Assembly (NCBI GenBank): GCA_963701985.1
Contig: OY969691.1
Location: forward strand, 1,672,260 to 1,736,259
Direction: 5' to 3'
Origin: an uncultured Coriobacteriia bacterium
GTDB lineage: Bacteria > Actinomycetota > Coriobacteriia > Anaerosomatales > PALSA-660
Length of the DNA stretch: 64,000 nt
In this document: positions 27,494 through 54,821 of the stretch, piece by piece
Layout: each line of letters begins with the position of its first letter
Numbering within the stretch: the stretch's first letter is position 1
The notes under the pieces: model-generated
What the model was told of the DNA's origin: nothing
The model's input: only the letters and a program-made list of their open reading frames with translations
Databases searched by the model: none
Translations under genes and position numbers: made by a program

Positions 27494-27644
27494 TGCGCCG
27501 GACGCGCGAGCCGGCGATCGCCGCGCGGGAGACGTCACCGTACCGTGACCGTGGGTGTCCCGGCGCCGGTGGTACGATTATCGCGAACGGTCGGCCGGCC
27601 CGGAGGAGATGGTGACCGGAACACGAGACGCAGGACGCGAGTAA

Positions 27645-27810
27645 CGGGAAGCGCCGGGACTGCCCGGGCGAGCGAGCCAGGGCAGTCGACGAGGCGGGAG
27701 CTCATCGAAAGATTCGGCGGATGGCTCCCCGGCATCGCCCCCATGTCGTTACCGCACCGACAAAGCCCGCGGGTGACCGCGGAGACAAAACGGTGCGGGT
27801 TGGCGGGGTC
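27645..27810 (+). ncRNA. glmS ribozyme (GlcN6P-activated self-cleaving riboswitch)
   Basis: A^GCGCC cleavage motif at 27650; P1 GACTGCCC/GGGCAGTC; GACGAGG; ATCGAAAGATTCGGCGGATG; P4 CCGCACCG/CGGTGCGG with ACAAA loops and a GTGA tetraloop; directly upstream of glmS. Confidence 0.93.
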
Positions 27811-51771: not shown

Positions 51772-51801
51772 TTGACCCCTCACGTAGCGGCGCGATACCC
51801 T
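51772..51801 (+). promoter_or_regulatory. Putative promoter of the IMPDH-guaA operon
   Basis: TTGACC-N18-TACCCT about 215 nt upstream of the ATG. Confidence 0.5.
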
Positions 51802-51860
51802 GTACGCACACCGCAGGCATCCTCGGCGGTTCACGTCCACAGCATTCATCGCAGCATTGA

Positions 51861-51981
51861 GAGACCAGGCGCACGACCGGCCCCGCGGTAACGCGCGAAG
51901 CACGGGAACGCACCTGGTCTTGCCGTATATCCGAGGTGGCCGGAGTGGTCGTGGACGCAGACGCGGGCGGTTCGGCCGCCC
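51861..51981 (+). ncRNA. Candidate pseudoknotted cis-regulatory leader RNA
   Basis: AGACCAGG/CCTGGTCT stem; loop CACGACC complementary to downstream GGTCGTG; CGCG-GTAA-CGCG hairpin; GGGCGG/CCGCCC hairpin. Confidence 0.45.
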
Positions 51982-52015
51982 TAACGGAGACGAGTGTCGA
52001 GGAGGACGCGTCTTC

Positions 52016-53198
52016 ATGGAGATCGAGATCGGACGCGGCAAGACCGCCCGGCAGGGCATACGGATTCGACGACCTCGCGATCGTGCCGTCGCGGCGCACG
52101 CGCGACCCGCGCGACGTCGACATCACGTGGGAGTTCGGCTTCCGCGGCCGGACGTACACCTTCCCGCTGCCGATCCTCGCGTCGGCGATGGACGGCGTCG
52201 TCGACCCGGCGTTCGCGGTCGCGCATGGGCAAGCTCGGCGGCCTCGCGGTGCTGAACCTCGAGGGCATCCAGACCCGCTACGAGGACGCGAACGAGCAGC
52301 TCGACCTCATCGCCTCCTTCGACAAGGACGAGGCGACCGCGCAGCATGCAGGAGATCTACCGCGAGCCCGTCAAGGAAGAGCTCATCACGCGAGCGCGTC
52401 AAGCGAGATCAAGGACGGCGGCGTGCTGGCGGCCGCGTCGCTCACCCCGCAGAACGTGCGAGCGCTACATCGACGCCGCGATGGCCGGCGGGCTCGACAT
52501 CCTCGTCATCCAAGGGCACGGTCGTCTCGGCCGAGCACGTGTCCAGCTACGACAAGCCGCTCGACCTCAACGCGTTCATCAACGAGCCTCGACATCCCCG
52601 TCATCGTCGGCGGCTGCTGCAGCTACTCGGGCGCCCTGCACCTCATGCGCACCGGCGCCGTCGGCGTGCTCGTGGGCGTCGGACCGGGCCACGCGTGCAC
52701 GTCGCGCCGCGTGCTCGGCATCGGCGTGCCGCAGGGCACCGCCATCGCGGACGCCGCGGCGGCGCGGATGCGCCACCTCGACGAGACCGGCACGCTACTG
52801 CCACGTCATCGCCGACGGCGGCATGCGCACCGGCGGCGACCTCGCCAAGGCGATCGCCGTGCGGCGCCGACGCGGTCATGATCGGCTCGCCGCTCGCGAG
52901 CGCCGCCGAGGCGCCCGGCCGCGGCTACCACTGGGGCATGGCGACCTTCCACCCCGACCTGCCGCGCGGCACGCGCGTCCGCGGCGGCATCAAGGGCACG
53001 CTCGAGGAGATCCTGCTCGGCCCGGCGCACCAGAACGACGGCACGCTCAACCTCGTCGGCGGCCTGCGCACCTCGATGGCGACCTGCGGCTACGAGAACC
53101 TCAAGGCGTTCCAGAAGGCGGAGGTCATGGTCGCGCCGTCGCTCCAGACCGAGGGCAAGGTGCTGCAGAACGCCCAGGGCGTCGGGATGGGCCGCTAG
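52016..53198 (+). CDS. GuaB3-type IMP dehydrogenase family protein (frameshifted)
   Basis: AYGFDDLAIVPSRRTRDP; SAMDGVV; GVGPGHACTSR; IADGGM; GYHWGMAT. Confidence 0.88.
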
Positions 53199-53199
53199 C

Positions 53200-54773
53200 G
53201 TGCCGCATCGCAGCACGACGAGCAGCCGACCGTCTTCGTCGCTCGACTTCGGCGCGCAGTACGCGCAGCTGATCGCGCGGCGGGTCCGCGAGTGCCGCGT
53301 GTACTCGCGAGATCGTGCCGTACGACATCACGCGCGGAGGAGGTCGAGCGCCGCGCACCCGCGGCGCTCATCCTCTCGGGCGGGCCGGCGTCGGTCTACG
53401 CCGAGGGCGCGCCGCAGATGGACCCGCGCATCTTCGAGCTCGGGCATCCCGGTGCTCGGGCTTCTGCTACGGCATGCAGCTGATGGCGCTCGACCTCGGC
53501 GGCGAGGTGCCGAAGACCGACGTCGGCGAGTACGGCTTCGCGCGAGCTCACCGTCACCGATCCGTCGTGCGCGCTGTTCGAGGGCCTGCCGCGCGACGCA
53601 GCAGGTCTGGATGAGCCACCGCGACAGCGTCGGCACGGCGCCGCGCGGGGTTCGCCGTCGACGGCCTCGCACGCCACCACCGGCGGTGGCCGCGATGGCG
53701 GACGCGGCGCGCAGGCTGTACGCGACGCAGTTCCACCCCGAGGTCGCGCACACGCCGGCGCGGGCTAGCACATCATCAAGCACTTCCTCTACGACGTCGC
53801 CGGGCATCCCGCCGACGTGGACGATGGTCAACATCATCGACGAGGCGGTCGAGCAGCATCCGCGCGCAGGTGGGCGACGCGCGCGTGATCTGCGGGCTGT
53901 CGGGCGGCGTGGACTCAGTCGGTCGTGGCCGCGCTCGCTGCACCGCGCCATCGGCGACCAGCTGACGTGCGTGTTCGTCGACCACGGCATGCTGCGGCTC
54001 GACGAGGCCGACCAGGTCGTGCACGTGTTCCGCGACCAGTTCCGCGTCCACCTCGTGCACGTGGACGCGCGAGGACCGCTACCTCGCGCTGCTGGCCGGC
54101 GTGACCGACCCCGAGCAGAAGCGCCGCATCATCGGCGAGGAGTTCTGGAAGGTCTTCTTCGAGGAGGCGACGAGCGCTCGAGGGCGTGCGCGTTCCTCGC
54201 CCAGGGCACGCTGTATCCCGACGTCATCGAGTCGGGGCCAGGACGGCGGCCAAGATCAAGAGCCACCACAACCTCATCCCGTTCCCCGAGGGCGTGCACT
54301 TCGACCTCATCGAGCCGCTCGCGGCGCTGTTCAAGGACGAGGTGCGCGCGGTCGGCGCCGAGCTCGGCCTGCCCGGACGAGATCGTGCACCGGCAGCCGT
54401 TCCCGGGCCCGGGTCTCGCGGTGCGCATCATCGGCGAGATCACGCGCGAGAAGCTCGACATGCTGCGGCGCGCGGACGCGATCGTGCGCGAGGAGATCGG
54501 CGCGTGGGACGAGGAGCGCGAGGTGTGGCAGTACTTCGCCGTGCTGCCCGACATCCGCAGCGTCGGCGTCATGGGCGACGAGCGCACCTACGGGCGCCCC
54601 ATCATCATCCGCGCGGTCGCCTCGGCCGACGCCATGACGGCCGACTGGGCGCGCCTGCCGCACGAGCTGCTCGCGCAGCATGAGCAACCGCATCATCAAC
54701 GAGGTCGACGGGCGTCAACCGGGTCGCCTACGACATCACGAGCAAGCCGCCCGGTACCATCGAGTGGGAGTAG
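53200..54773 (+). CDS. guaA: GMP synthase (multiple frameshifts)
   Basis: [17 protein letters not shown]; GFCYGMQ; QFHPEV; LSGGVDS; QPFPGPGL; [10 protein letters not shown]. Confidence 0.94.
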
Positions 54774-54821
54774 GAAGCCGACGCGGCGCCCGCGCGACGC
54801 GATCGAGTCGAGGAGGACGCG

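Follow-up and report, generated by a model that had tools for sequence, protein, structure and literature searches.

The guaB3-guaA locus and its leader

The locus studied here raises the question of how a bacterium that appears to depend on a GuaB3-type IMP dehydrogenase adjusts the expression of its GMP synthesis genes, and what part the long leader upstream of these genes plays in it. In the window, that is, the whole 64-kb stretch of DNA that was analysed, guaB3, encoding an IMP dehydrogenase of the GuaB3 family, occupies 52016..53198 and guaA, encoding GMP synthase, 53200..54774, both on the plus strand and both frameshifted in the assembly, with guaB3 split over frames and the guaA fragment matching below the cut-off. 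The GuaB3 assignment was scored on the intact relative L002 (TIGR01304, 524 bits against a cut-off of 342), the catalytic-loop pattern is present in 36 of 37 relatives, and guaB3 is followed by guaA in 39 of the 40 loci of sufficient length. GuaB3 was the top IMPDH match in 41/41 genomes and, since no canonical GuaB passed the cut-off in any of these 41, where GuaB3 was the sole IMPDH-like gene found, it is probably their working IMPDH. This would liken them to cyanobacteria, whose own GuaB3 is described in PMC13273366 as essential and devoid of the nucleotide-sensing CBS pair.

Most genes between 44000 and 58000 of the window (tsaD, groEL, ychF, guaB3, guaA, pcrA-like) are interrupted by frameshifts of one base, for which sequencing errors in the single-contig assembly are the most likely cause, and several letters of the window are missing from contigs of other organisms. 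Because the assembly holds many single-base errors, features unique to the leader of this genome may be errors as well. A glmS ribozyme (27639-27808, 95.7 bits) is the sole Rfam match in the window, and a 6S RNA was located elsewhere in the genome (G000:C1:608077-608262, minus strand, 65.3 bits, above the cut-off).

The leader runs on the plus strand from 51808 to the guaB3 start codon, ATG, at 52016. It is preceded by a predicted sigma-70-type promoter (51772..51801), read in the sequence as a -35 box TTGACC (51772-77) and a -10 box TACCCT (51796-801), a pair that was not among the matches of a strict consensus promoter scan. The promoter proposed in the preliminary description gains support from relatives, with a -10 box and an AC-start in 85 of the 86 core-bearing leaders; 68 of 85 also have a -35-like box. 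The predicted +1 (51808..51813) lies seven bases past the -10 box and reads ACA in this genome, and among representatives ACC is found at +1 in 93% and G at +6 in 90%. The search pattern was AC[CTA] just past the -10 box, thus A and C at +1 and +2 are there by construction, which does not hold for the 85/86 recovery.

Downstream of the start lie the 5' arm of an enclosing stem, P1 (51821..51826, CCTCGG, of differing sequence among genomes), a conserved box UCGCAGCA (51849..51856), placed 5-11 nt and mostly 7-8 nt ahead of the main stem, and the main hairpin (51862..51920), which consists of the stem P2 (AGACCAGG, 51862-69, paired with CCUGGUCU, 51913-20) and a variable cap, P3, of 17-47 nt. 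A U-rich tail (51918..51928) follows CCUGG and ends in a conserved YAU; the geometry predicts a stop of transcription near 51926, the next base being A (51927). The 3' arm of P1 (51931..51936, CCGAGG) can pair only once the RNA extends past the tail. It is followed by a small hairpin before the ribosome site (51965..51981), common in relatives by eye and variable in sequence, and by a Shine-Dalgarno (SD) sequence, GAGGAGG, read at 51999..52005. All strings quoted in the preliminary description were located at the positions given there, including AGACCAGG, its partner CCTGGTCT at 51913-20, the small hairpin and GAGGAGG.

The leader as a whole folds no better than its shuffles (z -1.39), whereas the hairpin alone, 51862-51929, does (z -2.65, -32.1 kcal/mol). 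In relatives the tail lies 30-89 nt from the SD, U makes up 15% of the spacer against 3-6 U per 9 nt in the tail (all 86 leaders), and an A is kept at the base after the predicted stop in 95% of leaders.

A conserved core in the leaders of the order

Leaders were collected from the order, which we take to be Anaerosomatales. Of its 61 genomes, 56 matched the gene start and 55 leaders were fetched; the core is present in 48 of these 55 gene-picked leaders and in 22 of 25 families. Loci picked by the motif itself brought the total to 93 distinct leaders, of which 86 have the core, a larger fraction that is biased upward. The core shared across the order consists of the UCGCAGCA box, P2 (RGACCAGG/CCUGGUYY), the variable cap and a tail like UYGYCGUAU.

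Across 74 aligned sequences, 98.6% of the 592 cells of P2 are paired and 9 have double changes, and slid controls paired in 24-67%; the double changes fall at two of the eight pairs and none of 500 shuffles scored as high. This alignment had been fitted to the model, and an unfitted alignment gave 98.8% with 4 double-change cells. The middle pairs of P2 are nearly invariant and thus uninformative on pairing. For P1, pairing with its own partner gave a z of -4.1 in 74 representatives and of -5.3 to -5.7 in 85 leaders, and two other segment pairs used as controls were not significant. The main stem and the CCTCGG/CCGAGG pairing of the preliminary description are therefore both supported by the relatives, the latter as an enclosing stem with partner-specific pairing.

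Other structures proposed for this leader did not extend to its relatives. The pseudoknot between CACGACC (51872-78) and GGTCGTG (51947-53) is not partner-specific, with -20.5 kcal/mol for own partners and -21.2 for shuffled ones (86 leaders; p 0.90 and 0.96). Of the alternative pair CGTCCAC (51834-40) and GTGGACG (51951-57), CGTCCAC occurs only in this genome among 86 leaders, and the CGCG-GTAA-CGCG GNRA hairpin is likewise confined to this genome. The leader contains four perfect helices of at least 7 bp, compared with 1.6 per shuffled leader, and since 7.8% of 500 shuffles reach four, the complementary 7-mers need nothing beyond chance.

No Rfam family matched. The leader region of the window gave a best E of 3.1 with no family at threshold, the element in 20 relatives gave no match at E up to 10, and for the families of Rfam 15, among them purine, ZTP, ykkC, IMPDH, PyrR, T-box and 6S, the element was at or near no gathering threshold. 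The purine and ZTP models had no match in 5/5 genomes, four of them at least 90% complete. The suggestion that the leader is neither a guanine, a ZTP nor a ykkC riboswitch agrees with these results. Full-text literature searches, with limited coverage of subscription journals, listed no description of the element, and nothing on it was found by term searches in the main texts of PMC5737381, PMC8632094, PMC11109978, PMC7266159 and bioRxiv 10.64898/2026.10.21.760802; the supplements to PMC5737381, PMC11109978 and the preprint could hold the motif. An order-wide, uncatalogued cis RNA element before guaB3-guaA is real, and to this extent the preliminary description was borne out.

Range and losses of the element

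A covariance model of the element, R1, was tried on 70 further genomes of the order, and 50 of them have exactly one match. It had none in 80 genomes from other orders within the class; in a separate sample, the three large families represented there likewise yielded no guaB3 match. Every fetched R1 match lies upstream of guaB3. In 150 genomes of the phylum (a sample that includes G183, counted as a non-match) six matches of 24-29 bits were taken as chance, and R1 had no match in distant guaB3 loci (73 + 89). A pattern scan of all species genomes returned at least 119 loci, of which 80 were scored; at least 22 were strong matches, all upstream of guaB3, and the weaker loci among the matches listed score at most 29 bits.

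In 7 of the 55 gene-picked leaders the whole block is missing and the promoter and ACC start abut the ribosome site. A tree of 88 gene starts (five of the 93, either frameshifted or too short, were omitted) requires six changes to explain the losses, at least four of them on firm branches. The ACC start is kept in the seven element-less leaders, and the 12 most frequent trimers at the corresponding position of 40 promoter-like sites from this genome do not include ACC. Dependence on the starting nucleotide is a mechanism from B. subtilis, and an ACC start may in the same way tie initiation to ATP over GTP.

Resemblance to terminators

In this genome tRNA genes are followed by terminators made of a GC hairpin and a broken U tail, a kind to which P2 and its tail also belong. 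A terminator rule was composed, after the sequences had been seen, of a -10 box, then a GC hairpin, then at least 4 U in 9. It was passed by 71 of the 93 leaders of the order, the hairpin being P2 in 68; thus 68 of 86 P2 stems reach the standard of this genome's tRNA-gene terminators, which is a weak one and whose U count is bounded by the rule itself. Controls from this genome passed in 7 of 312 cases for SD-ATG upstream regions and in 6 of 1000 for random windows (131 of 1000 without the -10 requirement), and purA and pyrG leaders in 1 of 29 each. The tail mostly has 4-5 U per leader, with 3 U in 13 of 86, and a strict 5-of-8 U terminator scan found nothing in the leader region of the window.

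Outside the order 36 of 162 guaB3 upstream regions, from nine named families, passed the rule, 18 of the 36 belonging to one family. The distant stems likewise end in GGUC in 24 of 36; plain U runs occur in L234, L242, L310, L314 and L335 and near-identical tails in L364, L394, L382 and L383. Common descent of the order's element and these terminators is not supported, as R1 finds none of them. A YA follows the tail in 67 of 71 leaders of the order and in 23 of 36 outside it, against 3/7, 3/6, 31/131 and 6/16 in controls, a signal that is clear only within the order.

A terminator-shaped hairpin lies between the predicted promoter and the first gene with no second promoter, which is the arrangement of an attenuator. 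A -10-like box downstream of P2 was found in only 4 of 86 leaders, so that guaB3-guaA would depend on read-through. In RNA runs (n=3), 5-6% of words were found, none spanning the leader.

A conditional terminator as the preferred reading

We propose that the hairpin and tail act as a conditional transcription terminator, an attenuator, of guaB3-guaA, and give this reading a probability of about 0.5. Termination at the tail is likely, judging from the terminators of this genome and the U-tailed hairpins of other guaB3 leaders. In the default state transcription would be released near 51926, giving a predicted RNA of 119 nt; with guanine nucleotides in short supply the terminator would be read through and guaB3-guaA expressed. 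The logic of the pathway makes this direction, read-through at low guanylates, the likely one. An ordinary terminator needs no stem sequence kept over 22 families, and for this reason the opener may recognise the UCGCAG box together with the GACCAGG arm at a time when the second arm has yet to be transcribed, which is a weaker step of the model. Formation of P1 would have to wait for read-through, and the stem may then shield the 5' end. What is directly supported is where the element lies, its stem and tail, the conservation of its sequence, its repeated clean loss and the lack of a leader peptide; the element is probably an attenuator without a leader peptide.

Within the terminator model a small purine ligand that binds the RNA (IMP, XMP or an adenine nucleotide, making an ON switch) is the most likely opener, with a chance that we put a little short of even. 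An RNA-binding protein is the less likely alternative; somewhat less likely again is a response of the paused RNA polymerase itself to NTP levels, with the conserved A as the escape base.

The preliminary description had regarded the leader as switchable, and the relatives provide no conserved switch helix and no anti-SD pairing. No conserved antiterminator helix was found in the leaders of the order: pairing of the 5' region with the first arm gave a z of -0.02 against shuffles and a partner-shuffle p of 0.34-0.62, and pairing of the box with P3 was not significant. The 5' end of the leader mirrors the first P2 arm: in 54 of 73 leaders 5-6 of its 6 bases could pair with the second arm, compared with 3-5 in five element-less leaders. 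This pairing is too short to be a competitor and may be no more than a reflection of P1. As an anti-SD sequence the tail gave -4.87 with its own partner and -5.00 with shuffled ones, the P3 loop a p of 0.55 and the P1 arm no partner-specific pairing, and the 3' arm paired with the SD-to-start region no better than in shuffles or element-less leaders. In a scan of 143 segment pairs P1-type pairs rank top and no SD pair goes beyond a z of -2.8. Of the features by which riboswitches are recognised, a conserved covarying structure 5' of metabolically related genes is present, in one gene context only, and so are conserved nucleotides in unpaired or junction regions; two mutually exclusive folds were not found in the order's leaders.

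Other readings of the leader

The strongest rival, a doubtful one in our judgement, keeps the idea of the preliminary description without its pseudoknot: P1, the loop and P2 form a rod that is a conventional purine aptamer and governs the translation or decay of the full-length mRNA. P1 is partner-specific and closes past the predicted stop, and the most conserved unpaired bases, the CAG box and the YAU tail, then face each other in one loop between P1 and P2, a geometry that fits an aptamer better than a terminator and counts against the preferred reading. The box and tail also pair weakly (z -3.6 against shuffled tails), a signal that depends on two nearly invariant strings, and apart from it no conserved Watson-Crick partner of the UCGCAGCA box was found. 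With the box-tail loop held unpaired, predicted access to the SD is 0.49 compared with 0.43, rising in 19 of 85 leaders and falling in 2 of 85, but this effect is small and the leaders are kin and not independent. The SD sits 30-89 nt past the tail and the tail, box, P3 and P1 arm have no partner-specific pairing with it, no expression platform is visible, and the main stem resembles a terminator more than an aptamer core.

It is improbable that the element is a fixed leaky terminator or stabilising structure which sets the level of guaB3-guaA and senses nothing. In its favour, no switch helix was found and 7 of 55 gene-picked leaders manage without the element; but pairing would suffice for it, and the invariant CCAG/CUGG core and upstream box kept over 22 families would not be needed. 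By eye, the pyrG upstream regions of the same genomes have no such conservation.

A site for a regulatory protein on the full-length mRNA, with termination not involved, is slightly more improbable still. It would account for an invariant stem sequence without an alternative fold and for the repetition of CGCAG in the 5' region (22 of 73 leaders against 9.0 expected, twice in several), but it leaves the U-rich tail unaccounted for, and the Rfam PyrR model had no match.

Very little speaks, in the order, for an attenuator that works as in pyrBI, through a leader peptide and a coupled ribosome. In a distant family, f38, 19 of the 22 leaders have an AUG at the predicted +1, in a shared frame in 17 and open to guaB3 in 18, but in the order a start codon is found at +1 in 0 of 73 leaders, start codons before P2 occur at chance (AUG 20 against 22.8), and all four spacings are scattered over the frames. 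A translated leader ORF with a conserved start and frame is thus rejected for the order.

Equally remote is the notion that P2 terminates ychF, the gene before it, or closes a separate small RNA, of which 6S would be an example: ychF ends just upstream here and in 19 of 93 leaders, but 68 element-bearing leaders have no ychF end within 400 nt, the promoter precedes P2 and acts directly on guaB3 in leaders that have lost the element, and 6S RNA maps elsewhere in 5/5 genomes.

Leaders of purA and of distant guaB3 genes

A second conserved RNA, distinct from the guaB3 element, lies directly before the SD in purA leaders of the order. An outer stem with compensatory changes surrounds an invariant GGGAGCGGC...UCCGCGG core; it is present in 23 of 30 loci (L397-L426) and in this genome outside the window (G000:C1, about 1251915-1251951, minus strand). 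It has no Rfam match and no description in the literature searched, and is a strong candidate for a riboswitch of the AMP branch, cleaner than the guaB3 element.

Distant guaB3 genes have leaders of other designs. In family f38 (L310, L314-L316, L324, L329, L331, L338-L365) a reading frame from an AUG at the predicted +1 stays open through a GGGUCC-ended terminator hairpin to the guaB3 start, which is likely a leaderless-ORF attenuator. By eye, short leaders have a -10 box TAGACT or TAGGCT, then about 6 nt, then a TTTCC-like pyrimidine run (L238, L257, L261, L269, L270, L272, L276-L278, L280, L290, L294, L296); their transcription possibly begins on U or moves to a purine further on, a form of NTP-dependent start selection. 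In 14 loci (L236, L243, L254, L258, L285, L287, L297, L301, L302, L309, L312, L322, L337, L353), in some of them downstream of a leader terminator, a GTCCG...CCTAGGAT string is conserved about 7 nt before the guaB3 start and looks like a second, leaderless promoter.

The boldest version of the terminator model is a new riboswitch class, in which an aptamer built into the terminator responds to IMP, XMP or an adenine nucleotide by switching on guaB3-guaA, has replaced the leader peptide on an older, Actinomycetota-wide guaB3 terminator, and is paired with the undescribed purA RNA so that both balance the AMP and GMP branches at IMP. Taken as a whole we consider this combination unlikely. We know of no validated riboswitch for IMP, XMP, GMP or GTP. 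In bacteria that have GuaB3 only, without the allosteric CBS pair of canonical IMPDH, the leader offers a concrete point at which GTP balance could be controlled, and the material assembled here comprises about 90 aligned examples, alleles with natural deletions, distant versions with a terminator alone or with a leader peptide, and the purA partner motif.

Comparison with known systems

The guanine, ZTP and PRPP/ppGpp (ykkC) riboswitches also control purine genes from a 5' leader, with no match to the guaB3 element. The Rfam IMPDH motif, which is known from Faecalibacterium, is likewise an orphan leader of an IMPDH gene and has no Rfam match to the element. The pyrBI and pyrE attenuators of E. 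coli are NTP-sensing conditional terminators, and with pyrG of B. subtilis they share conditional leader terminators of nucleotide-synthesis operons and, as here, conserved first bases of the transcript; the guaB3 element differs from them in that it lacks a leader ORF, begins with ACC and then usually G in place of a conserved homopolymer, and has no corresponding tract in the first arm. The NTP-sensing pyrG attenuator is treated in PMC12709180.

TBR-lmo11 of Listeria (PMC8632094) is an orphan motif with a plausible terminator that is always upstream of IMP dehydrogenase, as here, and it differs in comprising 18 sequences, from Listeria only and without covariation; the comparison is one of descriptions. 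In the HMP-PP (thiS) riboswitch (PMC6478431) there are at least 6 U, the loop is conserved and a second fold, containing a pseudoknot, is supported, whereas in the guaB3 element the loop is variable, the stem conserved and the tail of 3-6 U, with no second fold found. The thiS leader is likewise a terminator-shaped hairpin of unusually conserved sequence devoted to one pathway, and the guaB3 element would be its counterpart as an ON switch.
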